Origin: Escherichia coli
GTDB taxonomy: Bacteria > Pseudomonadota > Gammaproteobacteria > Enterobacterales > Enterobacteriaceae
Assembly: GCF_003334255.1 (NCBI RefSeq)
Contig: NZ_QOWU01000076.1
DNA length: 16,778 nucleotides
Direction: 5' to 3' (one strand)
Shown here: positions 1,032 through 7,270 of the stretch, piece by piece
Position numbering within the stretch: position 1 is the stretch's first letter
Layout: each line of letters opens with the position of its first letter
The notes under the pieces: generated by a model
What the model was told of the DNA's origin: nothing
Seen by the model: only the letters and a program-made list of their open reading frames with translations
The model's database searches: none
Position numbers and translations under genes: made by a program

Positions 1032-1676
1032 TTATGTAACAGTCCATGCAGGGCTGAAATCTGCCTGCTGAAATAACTCCGTTAGCCCGCTAATCTGCTT
1101 TAACCTCAGAACTTCATCCTGGTCCATCCCCAGTTCTGTTCCGATACGTTCATCAGTCCAGCCAAGACGTGAAAGATCTCTGACAATATCAGACATTGAG
1201 GTTATCTGGTGTTTCCCCCTGGCTCTGTTATGTCGGATAGTCGCGGCAATACGTGAGGTTTGTCCCTTTCGGTCTGGATTAATACAGGTTACTGGTAGCC
1301 AGCCTTTCAGGCGTTTTCCAGTAACTGTTCTTCTACCTAGTAACTGCCTATGAAAACCATCCACCACCAGGTAATGGCTTGTTTCTTCCGAAACAACAAT
1401 TGGTTGAGTAAAACCGTCTTTTTCCAGAGATTGTTTCAGTAATTTTTTTTCGCTTGGGGCCATGACATTGGGATTATAATCGTTAGCGACAATTTCATCC
1501 GCTTTTACCCACAGCACACAGTCCACTGGTTCTTGAGCAAAGGGGCTGATCTCATGGAGTACGCAGCGGAGATGGTTCAGGGCCTGTATGGTTTTCTCTT
1601 CAGATTGTTCCTGACTGAAGTACTGTCGAATCATCTTGCTCAGCACCTCCACCTCTGGTGTCACAGAATTCCCCAT
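1032..1676 (-). CDS. ibrB: ParB-like nuclease-domain protein, IbrB-type (214 aa)
   Basis: ParB/Srx-type motif (LVVDGFHRQ) and C-terminal helix-turn-helix-like region; strong RBS (aaggaggaagga) before the ATG at 1674-1676; the start overlaps the 3' end of the upstream gene by 16 nt. Confidence 0.65.
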   Translation of the reverse strand: MGNSVTPEVEVLSKMIRQYFSQEQSEEKTIQALNHLRCVLHEISPFAQEPVDCVLWVKADEIVANDYNPNVMAPSEKKLLKQSLEKDGFTQPIVVSEETSHYLVVDGFHRQLLGRRTVTGKRLKGWLPVTCINPDRKGQTSRIAATIRHNRARGKHQITSMSDIVRDLSRLGWTDERIGTELGMDQDEVLRLKQISGLTELFQQADFSPAWTVT

Positions 1677-2887
1677 TCCTTCCTCCTTTCATTCATACGC
1701 TGCAGGTAACGTTCATAGTGCCGGGGTTTGTTGGGGCTGAAGGAGAGCGTTCGGCACCAGAAATCATTCTTTATGAGAGTCTTACAAATACGTCGCCAGG
1801 AGGGAACATCCCGGCAGCCCAGATCATTTTCCTGTTCATCCGGGATATCATCCGGGAATCCCCGGTTCTGATACCAGCGCAGGTAAACTGCTATCTTGTT
1901 GCGGTAGTGTTCAGCCGTTCTTTCCGGCATTACGTCCAGCAGGAAGAACGCATAGCTGCGCCAGGTATGATGGGATGGTTTTGACATCCGTTTACGCAGG
2001 GCAAAATAGGCCCCGCTTTCATTGGCATAAAGAGCCCCACTGGCAGCACCAGATACTCGTTCACACATCCGTGCCCAAGTTTCTGGCTCCAGAACATGAT
2101 AAAGCCATAGTCCCTTACGCTGTTCCGGGCCAAAAGGCTCACAGACACGCATATTACGTAGAGGAATGCCTGCGCGGTACATCAAATCATACAGAGGATT
2201 GTAGATTGCACAGGTTTTAGCGTTATATACCCAGATATCGTTGGTTTTCCAGTCATACAGCGGATACATGGTGTAGTAAAAACCTTCAGGTGACGCCGTG
2301 GTCCAGGGTTTATCATCTGCATATCTCAGTTTTCGTTGGGAAACCAGTCCCATAAATCTGTTAAGAGATTCATCCGCGCGGACTCCAGTCAGTATTGCCA
2401 CGCTACATTGGTTACTTGCGAACCAGGAAGAAAAAGCCGGGACAAATTCTTCAAAAGTCATGGCGTAGCGGTAAAAGGGGAAATACGCCATATCAGTAAT
2501 AGCATCTTCCGGTGGCTGTCGAACCCACTCTACACCGGGCTCCCAGCATATCCACTCAGGCTGAAACTGCGAGACACCATTTACTGTCGTCAGGGGAAGT
2601 GCAACCCAGTAAAAGGTATCTGTTACATCTTGGTACATCATCCGCATCTTCTGTATATGATCAATGGTGCATTGATACTGGGCTTCCCAGTCAATGAACA
2701 ATACAGAAAAACGACGTTTCTTCCTGTAGGCCACTTCGGCTACAAGATGGAAAAGTACAGTGGAATCTTTACCGCCAGAAAAAGATAAACATACAGAAGA
2801 GAATGTTTCAAACAACCATTCAATGCGGTGAATGGCTGCTGACAAAACATCTTCTCCAGTTCTGATTTTTGTTATAGTTACCGGCAT
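1661..2887 (-). CDS. ibrA: PAPS-reductase-family PP-loop protein with extended C-terminal domain, IbrA-type (408 aa)
   Basis: PP-loop motif SFSGGKDS near the N-terminus, typical of the PAPS reductase / DndC-like ATP pyrophosphatase family; the stop at 1661-1663 overlaps the ibrB start, suggesting translational coupling. No clear Shine-Dalgarno before the ATG at 2885-2887. Confidence 0.7.
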   Translation of the reverse strand: MPVTITKIRTGEDVLSAAIHRIEWLFETFSSVCLSFSGGKDSTVLFHLVAEVAYRKKRRFSVLFIDWEAQYQCTIDHIQKMRMMYQDVTDTFYWVALPLTTVNGVSQFQPEWICWEPGVEWVRQPPEDAITDMAYFPFYRYAMTFEEFVPAFSSWFASNQCSVAILTGVRADESLNRFMGLVSQRKLRYADDKPWTTASPEGFYYTMYPLYDWKTNDIWVYNAKTCAIYNPLYDLMYRAGIPLRNMRVCEPFGPEQRKGLWLYHVLEPETWARMCERVSGAASGALYANESGAYFALRKRMSKPSHHTWRSYAFFLLDVMPERTAEHYRNKIAVYLRWYQNRGFPDDIPDEQENDLGCRDVPSWRRICKTLIKNDFWCRTLSFSPNKPRHYERYLQRMNERRKEWGIL

Positions 2888-3053
2888 ACAATCTGATAAA
2901 AATAGCGAGGGTTTGCATTTTACCTAGTAACGTTATGTAACTATTTTTTTGAATAAAGGCAATGAGATAATGATAAAAAATGTTTATCTAATGTACTGAG
3001 CTCTTCTCTTTATTGTATTAACTCTTCGATTTCAGCGGCGTTGTCGTTCAGGT

Positions 3054-3078
3054 ATAAAAAAAGGAGCCGAAGCTCCTT
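3054..3078 (-). terminator. Intrinsic terminator for the minus-strand antirepressor gene
   Basis: On the minus-strand RNA: AAGGAGC-UUCG-GCUCCUU (7-bp stem, UUCG tetraloop) followed directly by UUUUUAU; sits 5 nt past the stop codon at 3084-3086. Confidence 0.7.
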
Positions 3079-3083
3079 TGGTA

Positions 3084-3713
3084 TCAGAATTCAAATTGTC
3101 TTGCCCGCAGGCTTTTCAGCATTGGTCTGGCCCGCTGAACTACGAAACTCGACTGGTCAAGCCGTGCCGCCTCTCTCAGTAGCACATCTCTGTTCTTCGT
3201 CACCATGTAGATAGTCTCAAACGCAATGTCATACAGCTTGTTCGTGTATGAGGAGTTCAGCTCTTTCATTATGGGGTACAGCTGCTTGCTAAGGTCCTGG
3301 GCTTTTTCCATCCAGAGCTGCATGTAGCAAAGGAGGATGATTTCCTCGGCTGTGAATTGCGGCTGTGGTTCTGCTTGTACTGGCTGAATGTTGCGAAGTT
3401 TCTTTTCGCACTCGATGAAGTAGCGGCGGATCTGGCGACCTTTTTCGTTACGTTCAACCATCGCAAGCTCTTTGGCTGTGTCGAGGGTGAGGTGGTAATC
3501 CTTGCGGCGGCGGCCTGGAGTTTTCGCCAAATTTGGCGAAAATAGAATGTAGTCTAAATTTTCTACGAATCCATACTCGTTTAGCCTGGCCCGTATCCAG
3601 TTAGAAAAATCTTTACCTACCTCTAAAAATCCATGCAAATCACGCGCGTTCACCAGAAGCGTAGGTTCATTTGAGATTGTACCTTCAAACACAGGGATGA
3701 GTTGAGTGGTCAT
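3084..3713 (-). CDS. Phage antirepressor, AntA/AntB N-terminal domain protein (about 209 aa from ATG at 3711-3713)
   Basis: N-terminal motif LIPVF...LVNARDLHGFLEVGKDFSNWIRARLNEYGFVENLDY matches the AntA-family pattern as I recall it; RBS aaggagg 5-11 nt upstream of the ATG. The listed 263-aa ORF has a 54-codon upstream extension with no RBS that overlaps the conserved leader, so the shorter start is preferred. Confidence 0.6.
   Translation of the reverse strand: MTTQLIPVFEGTISNEPTLLVNARDLHGFLEVGKDFSNWIRARLNEYGFVENLDYILFSPNLAKTPGRRRKDYHLTLDTAKELAMVERNEKGRQIRRYFIECEKKLRNIQPVQAEPQPQFTAEEIILLCYMQLWMEKAQDLSKQLYPIMKELNSSYTNKLYDIAFETIYMVTKNRDVLLREAARLDQSSFVVQRARPMLKSLRARQFEF
3454..3508. repeat. 55-bp direct repeat, copy 1 (54/55 identical to 3982-4036), inside the full-length antirepressor gene
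   Basis: Direct comparison: tcaaccatcgcaagctctttggctgtgtcgagggtgaggtggta[a/t]tccttgcgg; encodes HLTLDTAKELAMV in both paralogs, while flanking coding sequence is clearly diverged. Confidence 0.8.
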
Positions 3714-3801
3714 GATGACCTCCTTTGGCTTTTTTCGAGAAATGCCACCACAAGATGTGGTGCCGGGAGGCTCGAAACGGCCCAAAAGATACCGCGGACT
3801 T

Positions 3802-3824
3802 ATTCCCCTTGCGGGTGTTGTATT
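3802..3824 (-). promoter_or_regulatory. Conserved 23-nt leader motif, copy 1 (attccccttgcgggtgttgtatt), upstream of the full-length antirepressor gene
   Basis: Identical 23-mer at 4336-4358 upstream of the truncated paralog; both leaders also share caggcataaaaaa (3883-3895 and 4405-4417). Function not determined. Confidence 0.3.
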
Positions 3825-3962
3825 CGTCGCCCTCCCGACATTGATCGGGGATGTGACCGCACACTGTGCTATCACTGAATAACAGGCATAAAAAATCCAA
3901 CACTGACGGGGTTGGTTTAATCCGCTTTTGGGAGGTTTTCGAGGCCTCGGCGCGGAGTATAG

Positions 3963-4247
3963 TCAGTATTGGACGCAGTCGTCAACCATCGCAAGCTCTT
4001 TGGCTGTGTCGAGGGTGAGGTGGTATTCCTTGCGGTTGTGACCGCCTCTACCTTTTGCTTCCCGAATTTGGGAAGCAATCATATAGTCCTGATTTTCAAC
4101 GAAACCATATTCAGCAATACGTTCTGTTATCCACGATGCAAAGCGTTTACCAACCCCAAGGAAAGCGTGTAGATTGCGAGCATTGCATAGAAGGGCTGCT
4201 TGGTTTGAGATAGAACCGTTGAATACGGGGATGAGTTGACTGGTCAT
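3963..4247 (-). CDS. Truncated AntA-domain paralog (94 aa), probably a 5' gene remnant
   Basis: MTSQLIPVF...NARNLHAFLGVGKRFASWITERIAEYGFVENQDY parallels the downstream antirepressor N-terminus; same RBS (aaggagg) and start context; the ORF ends 7 codons after the shared 55-bp core. Confidence 0.45.
   Translation of the reverse strand: MTSQLIPVFNGSISNQAALLCNARNLHAFLGVGKRFASWITERIAEYGFVENQDYMIASQIREAKGRGGHNRKEYHLTLDTAKELAMVDDCVQY
3982..4036. repeat. 55-bp direct repeat, copy 2 (pairs with 3454-3508)
   Basis: See copy 1; single mismatch at 4026 versus 3498. Confidence 0.8.
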
Positions 4248-4335
4248 GATGACCTCCTTATTTGTTTAGTTTATAACCGCCAGTTAGTAGCTGGCGGTCG
4301 GGTGTCAACTGAGCCAAATAAGAAGCTCTGGGCAT

Positions 4336-4358
4336 ATTCCCCTTGCGGGTGTTGTATT
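4336..4358 (-). promoter_or_regulatory. Conserved 23-nt leader motif, copy 2
   Basis: Exact copy of 3802-3824; lies between the candidate promoter (4466-4495) and the RBS of the truncated antirepressor gene. Confidence 0.3.
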
Positions 4359-4465
4359 ACGCCTCTCCACCCGACCTTTGTACGGATGTAACTATGCCAA
4401 ATTGCAGGCATAAAAAAGCCGCAAAGCTATCGGGTGCGGAGACCGCTTATTTGTTCAGTGCGATC

Positions 4466-4495
4466 AGTATGCGATAGCTCTGGCGGATTTGTCAA
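4466..4495 (-). promoter_or_regulatory. Candidate sigma70 promoter reading leftward toward the antirepressor genes
   Basis: On the minus strand: TTGACA (plus 4490-4495), 18-bp spacer, CATACT (plus 4466-4471). Sequence match only; no experimental support. Confidence 0.3.
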
Positions 4496-4584
4496 ATCGT
4501 GCAGTAACATCCTTTTCTTCCTTGCCATTTCTCAATGATGACAAAGGGTGGATTCGGATTGGTATTGGGACAAAAGTGAGACAC

Positions 4585-4618
4585 ACAAAGCTTTGCATCG
4601 GCTTACAAAGCTTTGCAT
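4585..4618. promoter_or_regulatory. Operator-like element: two copies of acaaagctttgcat, each with a perfect 10-bp palindrome CAAAGCTTTG, centres 20 bp apart
   Basis: Direct reading: 4585-4598 and 4605-4618 are identical 14-mers; the core is self-complementary; spacing equals about two helical turns; located about 100 bp upstream of the candidate antirepressor promoter and about 75 bp from the ynfG junction. Confidence 0.35.
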
Positions 4619-4662
4619 GTTTTTCAATGTTGGGACGTGTGAGCGCAGAAATGACGGGCTAT

Positions 4663-4776
4663 CTAATTGATTTTAAACGATACGTAACCAACTTTAAAAT
4701 CTTTGCACGCCAGTTCGCAGGTTTTACAGCCAGTACAGCGGCTGGAATCGATAAAAAATCCATATTGTGTGGTCAT
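4663..4776 (-). pseudogene. ynfG: 5' fragment of ynfG (DmsB-like 4Fe-4S subunit gene): 28 native codons, then 9 foreign codons and a stop
   Basis: Translation from the ATG at 4774-4776 gives MTTQYGFFIDSSRCTGCKTCELACKDFK (matches the ferredoxin-type DmsB/YnfG N-terminus as I recall it), then VGYVSFKIN-stop; RBS aaggag sits 7 nt upstream of the ATG and 10 nt after the ynfF stop. Confidence 0.7.
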
Positions 4777-4786
4777 GGGCTACTCC

Positions 4787-7210
4787 TTAAACCTTTTCGA
4801 TCTGGACAAGATTGCTGTGCGACGGGTTTCCCTTTGCCAGCGGTGAAGGGCGGTGAGAGGTCAGAATATTGATACTGCCGCCGTGATCGACCCGGTCACC
4901 AAACATATCCGCTTTAAGCCACGCACCTTGCCCGATGGCGGTAACGCCAGGCAGAATACGCGGAGTCACTTTTGCGGCAATCAGCATTTCTCCATTATTG
5001 TTAAATACCCGCACGGTATCGCCATGACGGATACCGCGTGCCTGAGCATCAATGGGGTTGATCCACACCTCTTGTGGGCAGGCCTGCTGTAACACATCAA
5101 TATTGCCGTAGCTGGAGTGGGTACGCGCTTTGTAATGGAAGCCCGTTAACTGCAGTGGATAGGTTTTCCGCAGGGGATCGTCCCAGCCATCAAAACCTGG
5201 GGTATACGCAGGAAGGGGATGAATAATTTCATCTTTTTTCAATTCCCAGGTATCTGCAATCTTCGCCAGTCGTTCAGAATAAATTTCGATTTTCCCCGAA
5301 GGTGTTTTCAACGGGTTTGCCTGTGGATCTTCACGGAATGCGCGGAAAGCGACGTAGTGTTCTTCCGGGCATTTTTTCTTAAAGATCCCGGTCGTTTTCA
5401 TCTCCTCGTAGTCGGGCATCTCAGGGTTACGTTCCTTCGTTTTCGCATGGAGATATTTGATCCATTCATGCTGACTGCGACCTTCAGTAAAGGTTTGATA
5501 AACGTCTGGTCCTAAGCGTTTGGCGACTTCACTCAGCATCCAGTAGATGGGTTTGCGTTCAAATTTTGCTGAGGTTGCGGGTTGGGCGAGGATCACATAG
5601 CCCATATTCCCTGCAGATTCATGAGAGATAAGGTCTTCTTGCTCTGTTGGCATCAGGTCGGGCAACAGGATATCGCAATACTTAGCCGAGGCCGTCATGA
5701 AGTGGTCAATGCCAACAATCATCTCGCACTTGCTGTCATCCTGAAGCACCTCATGGGTGTGATTGATGTCGCCATGTTGATTGATCAATGTGTTACTGGC
5801 GTAGCACCATAAAAACTTGATGGGGACATCCAGTTTTTCTTTTCCACGAACACCATCACGGGTCGCGGTCATTTCCGTACCATGGTCGATGGCATCTGTC
5901 CATGTAAAGACGGAAATCTGCGTTTTAACAGGATTCTCGAGCATCGGGAACCATTCTACCCCCAGATCCCAGCTACCTTCGCGTACGCCTGAGTTGCCGC
6001 CGTTTATGCCGACGTTGCCGGTGAGAACGGAAAGCATGGCAATAGCGCGGGATGTTTGCTCGCCGTTGGAATGTCGTTGTGGCCCCCAACCCTGACAAAT
6101 ATAAGCAGGTTTTGCTGAACCGATCTCTCGTGCCAACTGGATAATTTTTTCTGCCGGGATGCTGGTGATTTTTGCTGCCCATTCCGGCGTTTTAGCTATG
6201 CCGTCAGGCCCTTCGCCCAGAATATAGGCTTTATAATGCGCGTTACGTGGTGCGTTGGCGGGCAGCGTTTTTTCATCGTAACCAACACAATATTTGTCGA
6301 GAAATGGCTGATCGACCATGTTTTCAGTAATCAGTACCCAGGCAATCGCACAGGCCAGTGCGCCATCGGTGCCAGGGCGAATGGGCAGCCATTCATCTTC
6401 ACGCCCGGCAGCAGTGTCGTTATAACGTGGATCGATGACGATCATGCGTGCGTTTGAACGTTCGCGGGCTTGCTCGACGTAGTAAGTGACACCACCGCCG
6501 CTCATCCGCGTTTCTGCCGGGTTATTTCCGAACATAACGACCAGTTTCGTATTGGCGATATCATCCGGGCTGTTGCCATCATTGGCACCGAACATATAAC
6601 TCATTGCGGCACTGATCTGTGCGGTACTGTAGCTGCCATAGCGACTGAGAAAACCACCGCAAGAGTTCATCAGACGGTACGGGACGTTTGAGTTGGTGAT
6701 GTTTCCGCCATCTACGCCTGTTCCGTACAGGACATGTACAGCCTCATTGCCGTAATCTTTCAGGATCCGCCGAAGATTATCACTGATGGTATCTAGGGCT
6801 TCGTCCCAACTTATCCGTTCAAATTTACCTTCACCGCGCTTGCCGACGCGCTTCATGGGATATTTCAACCTATCAGGATGATTCATCCGTCGGCGGATAG
6901 AGCGCCCGCGTAAACACGCTCGAACCTGATGATTACCGTAGACGTCGTCACCTGTCGTATCAGACTCCACCCAGTACACGGTGTCATCTTTCACATGCAA
7001 ACGTAACAGACAGCGGCTCCCGCAGTTAACGGTGCAGGAACTCCAGACCGCTTTCTCTTCTACCGGAGCCTCTGCCGCCCGGACCATTTGGGAAAATGGC
7101 AGAGTGAAAGCACTGCTTGCCAGCGCAAGACTGCCAAGTGCGGAGGTTTTCATCAGACTTCTACGGCTGATTTCAGCCTTCATGAGCGCCTCTGTGGTAT
7201 GGATTTTCAT
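4787..7210 (-). CDS. ynfF: Tat-exported molybdopterin (bis-MGD) oxidoreductase catalytic subunit, DMSO-reductase family paralog YnfF
   Basis: Twin-arginine signal (ISRRSLMK), N-terminal Cys cluster (CTVNCGSRC), about 808 aa with typical DmsA-family length. Start taken at the second of two adjacent ATGs (alternative start 7213). Confidence 0.9.
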   Translation of the reverse strand: MKIHTTEALMKAEISRRSLMKTSALGSLALASSAFTLPFSQMVRAAEAPVEEKAVWSSCTVNCGSRCLLRLHVKDDTVYWVESDTTGDDVYGNHQVRACLRGRSIRRRMNHPDRLKYPMKRVGKRGEGKFERISWDEALDTISDNLRRILKDYGNEAVHVLYGTGVDGGNITNSNVPYRLMNSCGGFLSRYGSYSTAQISAAMSYMFGANDGNSPDDIANTKLVVMFGNNPAETRMSGGGVTYYVEQARERSNARMIVIDPRYNDTAAGREDEWLPIRPGTDGALACAIAWVLITENMVDQPFLDKYCVGYDEKTLPANAPRNAHYKAYILGEGPDGIAKTPEWAAKITSIPAEKIIQLAREIGSAKPAYICQGWGPQRHSNGEQTSRAIAMLSVLTGNVGINGGNSGVREGSWDLGVEWFPMLENPVKTQISVFTWTDAIDHGTEMTATRDGVRGKEKLDVPIKFLWCYASNTLINQHGDINHTHEVLQDDSKCEMIVGIDHFMTASAKYCDILLPDLMPTEQEDLISHESAGNMGYVILAQPATSAKFERKPIYWMLSEVAKRLGPDVYQTFTEGRSQHEWIKYLHAKTKERNPEMPDYEEMKTTGIFKKKCPEEHYVAFRAFREDPQANPLKTPSGKIEIYSERLAKIADTWELKKDEIIHPLPAYTPGFDGWDDPLRKTYPLQLTGFHYKARTHSSYGNIDVLQQACPQEVWINPIDAQARGIRHGDTVRVFNNNGEMLIAAKVTPRILPGVTAIGQGAWLKADMFGDRVDHGGSINILTSHRPSPLAKGNPSHSNLVQIEKV

Positions 7211-7270
7211 CATTACTCACTTATTGCTTTTCAAACAAAATGTCATGCCAGAATTTATGGTTGTCGTGGG

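Follow-up and report, generated by a model that had tools for sequence, protein, structure and literature searches.

Two tandem antirepressor genes of an Escherichia coli prophage lie behind sRNA-Xcc1 leaders whose architecture resembles the RNA-based immunity regions of phages P1 and P4

The stretch of Escherichia coli chromosome analysed here (16,778 nucleotides (nt) of contig NZ_QOWU01000076.1, RefSeq assembly GCF_003334255.1; "the window") includes a prophage end that carries, as a preliminary description had noted, two AntA-type genes in tandem on the minus strand, an open reading frame (ORF) of 94 amino acids (aa) at 4247..3963 and a 209-aa gene at 3713..3084. Each is preceded by a copy of the structured RNA sRNA-Xcc1 (Rfam RF02221), and each copy lies within a ~530-nt unit, the units (A, upstream, and B) forming a tandem direct repeat. 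The earlier suggestion that leader motifs common to both genes represent a cis-regulatory RNA for antirepressor translation is borne out to the extent that the 23-nt motif belongs to sRNA-Xcc1, the variable loop of which covaries with the Shine-Dalgarno (SD) region of its own unit. We consider it probable that each antirepressor gene sits in a self-contained, RNA-controlled unit like those of the P1/P7 (C4) and P4 (CI) immunity regions.

An Rfam scan of the window gave exactly two matches, both to RF02221 on the minus strand, with scores of 69.1 bits (4376..4288, copy A) and 73.4 bits (3839..3754, copy B) against a gathering score of 53, each covering model positions 1–87 of 87; the E-values for the whole window are 5e-11 and 5e-12, respectively. 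The three-way junction typical of the family (closing stem P1, P2 with a GNRA hairpin, and P3) is present in both copies, and compensatory changes keep the P1 helix, which is GUCGGGAGG/CCUCCCGGC in copy B and GGUCGGGUG/CACCCGACC in copy A. The exact 23-nt motif that had been noticed in both leaders is confirmed inside a 29-nt repeat (3796–3824 and 4330–4358), and it is the invariant core of hairpin P2, AAUACAA-N-ACCC-GNAA-GGGG-AAU. Single-sequence folding of copy A reproduces the three-way junction plus the adjoining hairpin P4 (-43 kcal/mol, z -4.36), and that of copy B recovers P1, P3 and P4 but not P2a. The ends of sRNA-Xcc1 resemble a tRNA acceptor, with U at position -1 in 74% of cases, a G+1:C pair in 97% and a tail of R-C-C-(A/C) in 86–94% and of R-C-C in 89–94%; these signals would fit 5' maturation by RNase P from a longer precursor. 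Immediately 5' of P1 there is a conserved AUG. A leader peptide starting at it was considered and rejected, since its frame is not conserved between subtypes (indels of 2–3 nt before the core) and it has no SD; the AUG more plausibly represents positions -2, -1 and +1 of this acceptor-like end.

Both units have the same order: a sigma-70-like promoter, a decoy presented in a small hairpin or beside one, a leaky terminator, hairpin P0, the sRNA-Xcc1 RNA, hairpin P4, the target overlapping the SD, a start-codon hairpin and the AntA gene. When leaders are lined up by these landmarks, three sets of long-range complementarity are seen that change together between loci. In the first, the P3 loop is complementary to the SD and the 5–8 nt before it (UUCUUAUUUG with CAAAUAAGGA in unit A, AUCUUUUGG with CCAAAGGA in unit B). 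In the second, the junction strand J3/1 is complementary to a stretch 10–25 nt farther upstream, and in the third a near-copy of the SD-side address lies ~75–125 nt upstream of P1, with GCGG after it where the SD side has GGAG; the decoy (a1) of unit A is ACUGAACAAAUAAGCGG at 4459..4443, to be compared with the target ACUAAACAAAUAAGGAGG at 4270..4253. This joint variation of the three address segments extends over about 180 distinct leaders, some of phage origin and others from bacteria belonging to many phyla.

Since a register chosen for each sequence would void a shuffle control, we used duplex tests in which cognate and non-cognate energies were compared with the register re-optimised for every pair (2000 permutations), and we also counted base pairs in 16 B-type units aligned by MAFFT without fitting. 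The P3 loop pairs with its cognate SD region at -9.88 versus -5.28 kcal/mol when permuted (sd 0.25), J3/1 with its linker at -5.66 versus -3.55 (sd 0.19), and the P3 loop with its upstream copy at -12.16 versus -9.40 (sd 0.23), and in none of the three did any of the 2000 permutations reach the cognate value. As cross-controls, J3/1 against the SD gave nothing and the loop against the linker gave a weak signal. The result was replicated with an independent set of 104 genome leaders of many phyla without ORF calls (loop against downstream region, -11.98 versus -9.24, sd 0.21; loop against upstream region, -13.9 versus -10.44, sd 0.20). On the alignment, five of the eight pairs of the loop-SD helix are changed on both sides and 88.6% of cells are paired, with G-U pairs tolerated, which argues for pairing of RNA over a constraint at the DNA level. 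The J3/1-linker helix has three of six pairs changed on both sides (98.5% paired), and the pairing of the a1 hairpin loop with J3/1 has four of six (87.5%). MAFFT misaligns P1 between the two structural subtypes, for which reason core helices on the alignment A1 were left out of the counts. The P3 stem, placed one column off on the B-type alignment, shows 32% paired cells there, a figure that does not speak against P3. A small hairpin holding the start codon is found in about two thirds of leaders (cognate -3.50 versus permuted -2.00, sd 0.21).

No part of the units is less conserved than the address segments, whose pairwise identities are 0.32–0.47 as against 0.80 elsewhere. Own and crossed targets differ by about 6 kcal/mol, which makes units A and B orthogonal: the loop of unit A binds its own target at -12.0 kcal/mol and target B at -6.2, and the loop of unit B its own target at -9.9 and target A at -3.6. 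The difference in hypervariable address between A and B implies that each RNA would control its own gene.

Table 1. Features of antirepressor units A and B in the window
Feature	Position	Strand	Basis
Unit A promoter-like site TTGACA, 18 nt, CATACT	4466..4495	minus	promoter scan; TTGACA at same relative position in other A-type loci
Unit A upstream decoy a1, ACUGAACAAAUAAG + GCGG, near-copy of the SD-side address	4443..4459	minus	repeat search; duplex test
Unit A hairpin CCGCA...UGCGG + U-run, read as leaky intrinsic terminator ending a short a1 RNA; includes caggcataaaaaa	4412..4439	minus	conserved in many loci
Unit A hairpin P0 (AUGCC...GGCAU), between terminator and RNA	4394..4411	minus	arms vary between loci yet complementary (by eye)
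sRNA-Xcc1 copy A: P1 4376-4368/4304-4296, core 4358-4335, P3 4330-4309, loop UUCUUAUUUG	4288..4376	minus	RF02221, 69.1 bits
Unit A hairpin P4, directly 3' of P1, stem uses RCC tail	4277..4297	minus	stems covary among A-type loci (by eye)
Unit A target a2 ACUAAACAAAUAAGGAGG, address + SD, complementary to P3 loop	4253..4270	minus	inverted repeat; duplex energy
Unit A start-codon hairpin GGUCAUCAUGACC	4242..4254	minus	start-codon hairpin energy test across leaders
antA 94-aa ORF, AntA N-domain only, ends DDCVQY*	3963..4247	minus	ORF list, unit alignment; PGAP: antA/AntB pseudogene, C-terminus missing
Near-identical 54-nt core, unit A copy	3982..4035	minus	repeat search, unit alignment
Unit B promoter-like site TTGACG, 18 nt, TATACT; overlaps last codons of 94-aa ORF	3956..3985	minus	promoter scan
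Unit B decoy: hairpin GAGG..CCUC, loop CUCGAAA (J3/1 target), then address CCAAAAG + GCGG	3922..3948	minus	inverted repeat; pair counts
Unit B hairpin CCAAC..GUUGG + U-run, leaky terminator	3890..3915	minus	96% of cells paired (B-type alignment)
Unit B hairpin P0	3853..3875	minus	10 pairs, 2 changed on both sides, 80% paired
sRNA-Xcc1 copy B: P1 3839-3831/3770-3762, core 3824-3801, P3 3796-3777, loop AUCUUUUGG, J3/1 3776-3771	3754..3839	minus	RF02221, 73.4 bits
Unit B hairpin P4 (3762-3746) + 3' strand CUCGAAA (3739-3733) pairing with J3/1	3733..3762	minus	pair counts
Unit B target a2 GCCAAAGGAGG (3729-3719) + start-codon hairpin (3720-3708)	3708..3729	minus	pair counts
antA/AntB antirepressor gene, 209 aa, AntA N-domain + P22_AR_C C-domain	3084..3713	minus	Pfam
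Near-identical 54-nt core, gene B copy	3454..3507	minus	repeat search, unit alignment
Intrinsic terminator after gene B, tail with third copy CAGGTATAAAAAA	3060..3079	minus	repeat search, terminator scan

The sRNA-Xcc1 core is not confined to this locus. An exact-pattern scan finds it at no fewer than 120 viral loci with 106 distinct RNAs, and in most of 120 viral loci the next start codon is 103–115 nt from the core. Among the 99 distinct proteins encoded downstream, 77 have an antirepressor-type N-terminal domain (Bro-N in 19, P22_AR_N in 16, AntA and KilA-N in 12 each, ORF6N in 11 and Rha in 7). With one genome per species, the core is also found in many bacterial lineages, including Pseudomonas, Xanthomonas, Photorhabdus, Haemophilus, Neisseria, Azospirillum, Desulfobacteraceae, Acidobacteria and Verrucomicrobia. 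The preliminary description had allowed for homologous elements that all encode a stand-alone 94-aa protein behind a leader motif peculiar to this locus, and this is not what is found, the motif being conserved far beyond it. In some arrays each gene is preceded by an sRNA-Xcc1 of its own.

That sRNA-Xcc1 is a free-standing trans-acting small RNA (sRNA) directed at unlinked host or virulence genes, its place in front of antirepressor genes being incidental, is very improbable. Such a role is suggested by the RNA of ~88–100 nt that accumulates in X. campestris and has many predicted targets (PMC2996969), and by the Xylella copies found in vesicles (PMC12189769). It does not account for the facts that the only variable single-stranded parts of the RNA covary with sequences of their own unit, that the spacing to the start codon is fixed and that a single functional class accounts for 77 of the 99 downstream genes, and no conserved seed for a host target is seen.

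By analogy with the immunity regions named above, a transcript would start at the sigma-70-type promoter, its first ~60 nt would expose decoy a1, and it would end at the weak terminator. Read-through transcripts would enter sRNA-Xcc1, with its three-way junction and tRNA-acceptor-like ends, and then the antirepressor mRNA. There the P3 loop and J3/1 would pair with the SD, with the 5–8 nt before it (a2) and with the stretch farther upstream, while the start codon is held in its small hairpin, so that the ribosome binding site (RBS) is blocked and the antirepressor is off. The RNA would act in cis within the read-through transcript and probably, after processing, in trans as well. Alternatively, the P3 loop would pair with the upstream decoy; because a1 carries the same address, a short a1 RNA, or a1 within the precursor, could titrate sRNA-Xcc1 or change read-through. 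We tentatively suggest that a1 may act as an antidote or an attenuator.

The P4 immunity region has its elements in the same order. The same Rfam search applied to phage P4 finds the C4, c4-a1b1 and isrK models, and the region consists of a hairpin loop GUGAGAA that matches the CI junction, UUCACAGG that matches the loop of the second CI hairpin, a terminator (isrK and c4-a1b1 models), and then a three-way-junction RNA with a CACC tail. P4 CI (seqA-seqB-seqC) thus shares with the sRNA-Xcc1 units a junction target in a hairpin loop, a loop target, a terminator and a three-way-junction RNA; it differs in having no sequence homology and in that it is described as causing premature transcription termination of replication genes rather than masking an antirepressor SD. 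C4 of P1 and P7 blocks the ant mRNA/operon at the RBS, its address underlies P1/P7 heteroimmunity (PMC12197685), and C4 and CI are both RNase P substrates (PMC5499578). As is seen or predicted for sRNA-Xcc1, C4 (immI: a1b1 - c4 - a2b2/icd - ant; RF01695, RF03163) is a processed ~80-nt RNA on the same strand upstream of an antirepressor operon, with a closing stem and two hairpins, a single-stranded junction and loop as antisense segments, complementary copies upstream (a1b1) and over the downstream RBS (a2b2), specificity through address differences, a 5' AU|G and a 3' CACC-type tail. In both window units the loop and junction are likewise complementary to a site over the downstream RBS, and a second complementary copy followed by a terminator lies upstream (4459–4443 and 3948–3922). 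The differences are that the first hairpin of sRNA-Xcc1 is an elaborate invariant domain whereas that of C4 is a simple UUCG hairpin, that the closing stem is 9–11 bp rather than 17 bp, that a2 covers the antirepressor-like gene's own SD whereas C4 acts at the small upstream ORF icd with Rho-dependent polarity, and that the downstream genes and host phyla of sRNA-Xcc1 are much more varied.

In Salmonella Gifsy-1 (IsrK - orf45(STnc1160) - anrP), as predicted for the window units, one promoter gives a short terminated RNA and a read-through RNA, and an antirepressor is regulated (PMC4825925). There the read-through mRNA, which encodes the antirepressor, is translationally silent and is activated in trans by the short terminated IsrK (PMC4825925); an activating a1 in the sRNA-Xcc1 units would be the counterpart. 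Gifsy-1 uses alternative helices and translational coupling via orf45, whereas the sRNA-Xcc1 units would be silenced by a separate structured RNA between the short RNA and the gene. The X. campestris sRNA-Xcc1, seen there as an 88-nt RNA (PMC2996969), is in the same family as the window copies by score and structure. It is described as integron-borne, controlled by HrpG/HrpX and trans-acting, and is found upstream of symE (10.1101/2025.06.18.660453), whereas the window copies precede antirepressor genes; the SD-side address is not kept in those cassettes.

Several observations weigh against the RNA-controlled unit as we propose it. The C4, c4-2, c4-a1b1 and isrK models have no match in window 3600–4600 even at E<=1, and neither homology to RF01695 nor membership of clan CL00128 was found there; by architecture we thus class the window units and C4 as one kind of system, without placing the units in the C4 family. 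The helix between the a1 address and the loop is only 67% paired on the MAFFT alignment. In the Xanthomonas-type integron cassettes a1 and the loop covary, but the SD region does not vary and for the most part lacks complementarity to the loop, so SD masking is not universal in the sRNA-Xcc1 family. The terminator hairpins of both units are weak and unflagged by a simple scan (the unit A loop exceeds 8 nt), the four promoter-like matches in the region are not far above the shuffle expectation of 2.3, and short a1 RNAs fold no better than shuffles (z about -0.4). The P2 domain (4335–4358 and 3801–3824) is invariant across phyla while all other helices vary, and it has no role in the mechanism outlined above. 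Finally, cis and trans action would look alike at the level of sequence.

The invariance of P2 speaks for a purely cis-acting sensor (a riboswitch, RNA thermometer or protein-binding leader) in which P2 would bind a conserved ligand or host factor and so decide whether an SD-masking pseudoknot forms, with no trans RNA. Its internal loop and GNRA hairpin are the same from E. coli to Acidobacteria and Verrucomicrobia, as is typical of a binding pocket, the distance from RNA to start codon is fixed, and intramolecular masking of the SD is plausible. A sensor would, however, leave unexplained the second, upstream address, which has a promoter and a terminator to itself, the hypervariability of the address amid a conserved remainder, and the discrete 88-nt RNA (PMC2996969) with its acceptor-like processing signals, and no Rfam riboswitch family has a match in the window. 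We regard it as unlikely.

The same low likelihood attaches to the idea that transcription attenuation is the main output, as in P4 CI, with mature sRNA-Xcc1 pairing with a1 (and a2) on nascent transcripts, altering hairpin/U-run or Rho-dependent termination, and SD pairing being secondary. The arrangement of the decoys is suggestive in this respect: a1 is immediately 5' of the terminator in nearly all loci and is followed by the conserved GCGG, for which CCGC, the terminator's 5' arm, is a possible partner in A-type units (GCGG:CCGC is in the minimum-free-energy fold), and what the Xanthomonas cassettes retain is the a1-loop pairing; a passage in PMC4825925 describes P4 CI as working in this way. 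On the other side, a2 overlaps the SD and covaries strongly in phage units, the additional start-codon hairpin points to translation, and the direction of any effect on termination is not deducible. The RNA-controlled unit with translational repression remains our preferred reading.

Decoy pairing may be the ancestral or core interaction of the family. In loci L128–L208 (Xanthomonas and relatives) covariation between the P3 loop and the upstream site is perfect (CUCUUAG/CUAAGAG and CUAUGUG/CACAUAG are examples), and the constant region before the start codon is UUCCAGGAGGGCG.

The two units of the window are 64.5% identical overall and 62% in the part encoding the N-domain, against which a core with 54 of 55 identical positions stands out, in agreement with the earlier claim of coding sequences diverged except for a 55-bp stretch. 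The similarity of the units is not due to chance, and the repeats listed earlier are all at the positions given for them. The core appears as a 54-nt direct repeat on the minus strand (3454–3507 and 3982–4035, 98% identical) that encodes ...YHLTLDTAKELAMV in both ORFs. The 209-aa protein matches Pfam AntA (PF08346) over residues 21–89 (E 1.9e-26) and P22_AR_C over residues 118–180 (E 1.2e-07), and the 94-aa ORF aligns with it over the AntA domain; past the core it has six more codons and then its stop (DDCVQY*). Other repeats are CAGGCATAAAAAA at 3883–3895 and 4405–4417, with a third variant CAGGTATAAAAAA at 3049–3061, and the RBS and start context GGTCATCATGACC at 4254–4242 and 3720–3708, with GGAGGTCATCATGACC in common. 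The 17-nt RBS context reported for both genes is thus present, but we read it as the SD plus the small hairpin that holds the start codon; caggcataaaaaa, also listed as a leader motif, is there too, but it is the U-tract of the terminator and the first bases of the next hairpin, not a motif of its own. Direct repeats with a ~530-bp period and a truncated first gene are what a recent tandem duplication with decay would give, the common motifs then being leftovers of descent with no regulatory role. We give this almost no credence, because the units are only 64.5% identical and yet their RNA helices are kept by compensatory changes, and the element is found at hundreds of unrelated loci.

The preliminary description also proposed that recombination at the core left the 94-aa ORF as a 5' remnant and that related prophages should be searched for a single intact gene. 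Such a gene exists: L031, a prophage at the same ynfG junction, has a single, intact antA gene of 204 aa after its unit A. From 4800 to exactly 3982 the window matches L031 at 90.7%, the homology ends at 3982/3981, and unit B starts there. At least 80% of the L031-type intact arrangement is present in 218 E. coli genomes, and the window arrangement is present in 39. The junction sequence GGTTGA closes the core and at the same time opens the unit B -35 hexamer TTGACG; it is also found at the start of B-type -35 hexamers elsewhere (e.g., ccGGTTGACG in L094), and B-type units at other loci have (G)GTTGACG, 17–18 nt and TATCTT at the position of the unit B promoter. This fits a microhomology deletion or a junction at the unit boundary, and, given this double role of GGTTGA, the 94-aa ORF is most likely a remnant formed at that boundary. 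A remnant is therefore upheld, but not one made by simple crossover within the core: the break, at 3982/3981, is at its 3' edge, and the outcome expected of simple unequal crossover at the 55-bp core is a triplication or a hybrid gene rather than a truncated ORF. ORFs with only an N-domain, cut just past it, precede other units as well (ORF6N, 104 aa, in L017, and likewise in L015), and because they recur in this way the 94-aa product may have a function.

The literature searched, from which the original 2011 description is absent, treats sRNA-Xcc1 as a Xanthomonas/Xylella sRNA, as the neighbour of symE or of an ORF6N gene, or as an entry in lists. In it sRNA-Xcc1 is nowhere connected to C4/CI, to an upstream decoy or to pairing with the SD of its own unit, and its association with antirepressor-type genes goes no further than a remark on the ORF6N gene beside it in APSE phages (10.1101/2020.03.17.996009). 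We put forward, as a conjecture, that the sRNA-Xcc1 units are a widespread modular RNA lock and key, in which each antirepressor-like or toxic DNA-binding gene would be kept off by an RNase P-processed antisense RNA with a hypervariable SD-masking address, a short decoy with the same address would open the lock or tune read-through, diversifying selection would produce orthogonal units, and P2 would recruit a conserved host factor. If this were so, prophages could stack arrays of independently controlled antirepressors that are heteroimmune to each other's, and the P1/P4 immunity principle would extend to thousands of prophages, integron cassettes and islands in Proteobacteria and beyond. Antirepressors decide prophage awakening, including that of the Stx-converting phages that carry these units, and with such an RNA lock the induction and cross-induction of co-resident prophages would be set by an RNA specificity readable from sequence. 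A testable molecular role would also emerge for a family that for 15 years has been classed as a virulence-linked sRNA of Xanthomonas, and the compact orthogonal address/anti-address design could serve for programmable translational switches. The unit organization also accounts for a common annotation pattern, short "antirepressor" pseudogenes beside intact ones at prophage ends.

Other arrays show how varied these units are. L017 (8434–10810) has isrK and C4, a 104-aa ORF6N-only ORF (...AKMLETDRA), sRNA-Xcc1, a 220-aa ORF6N/P22_AR_C gene, sRNA-Xcc1 again and a 214-aa gene with the same C-terminal domain; the C-domains of its genes are near-identical and the N-domains differ. Since this array mixes isrK-C4 and sRNA-Xcc1 units, classical C4 and sRNA-Xcc1 units are interchangeable neighbours. 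L002 (1875–4064, E. coli O22:H8 strain 154) has three sRNA-Xcc1 copies (1875–1963, 2415–2500 and 3288–3378) that precede, respectively, a truncated antA, an antA/AntB gene and a frameshifted BRO gene, and in L019 (7028–7357) only one gene, of 278 aa, follows two copies that are 243 nt apart and have no ORF in between. A distinct subtype with P1 CCGGGAU... occurs in L053, L054, L063, L068, L071, L081, L089, L100, L121 and L122, where proteins of ~85 aa (MNPLCTVLPDLP...) follow at 141–144 nt with no obvious SD. In L031 a sok antitoxin RNA (hok/sok type I toxin-antitoxin) is found at 4061–4232, ~2.8 kb from the antirepressor unit.

The chromosomal genes ynfE (7271–9697) and ynfF (4787–7213), both on the minus strand, are followed by the first ~85 nt of ynfG (~4690–4775, minus strand), which is cut after ~28 codons by the prophage end; ynfG, whose product is the 4Fe-4S subunit of the YnfEFGH selenate reductase, is thus the attachment site of the prophage and is inactivated. 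Past ynfG, the order along the minus strand is the two antA-type genes, an IbrA-like PAPS reductase gene, an IbrB gene, a Panacea-domain gene and a large LPD38 gene. The 408-aa ORF at 2887..1661, directly after the antirepressor units, was considered as a satellite integrase, but this is ruled out by its annotation as a PAPS-reductase/IbrA-like protein, followed by IbrB (a ParB-type protein, 1676..1032). The Panacea-domain gene is at 419–943 on the plus strand, and the giant LPD38 gene is frameshifted and outside the window. Several E. coli genomes have the window arrangement with 100% identity. It is present in Escherichia phage PhiR5_2 too, and Stx-converting phages commonly carry related units.

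Between the ynfG junction and the unit A promoter, ATGCAAAGCTTTGT occurs twice, 20 bp apart (4581–4624), each time with the palindrome CAAAGCTTTG; a terminator scan flags this region as terminator-like, and the pair may be operator sites, integrase-arm sites or a long hairpin. A related sequence, CGATGCAAAGCGTT, lies inside the 94-aa ORF at 4134–4147. A LexA box between terminator and RNA was looked for by eye and rejected, the CTGT..ACAG spacing being 14 nt and not 8. We note that the terminator loops upstream of sRNA-Xcc1 hold a (C)ACCCGNNAGC string that resembles the P2 domain.

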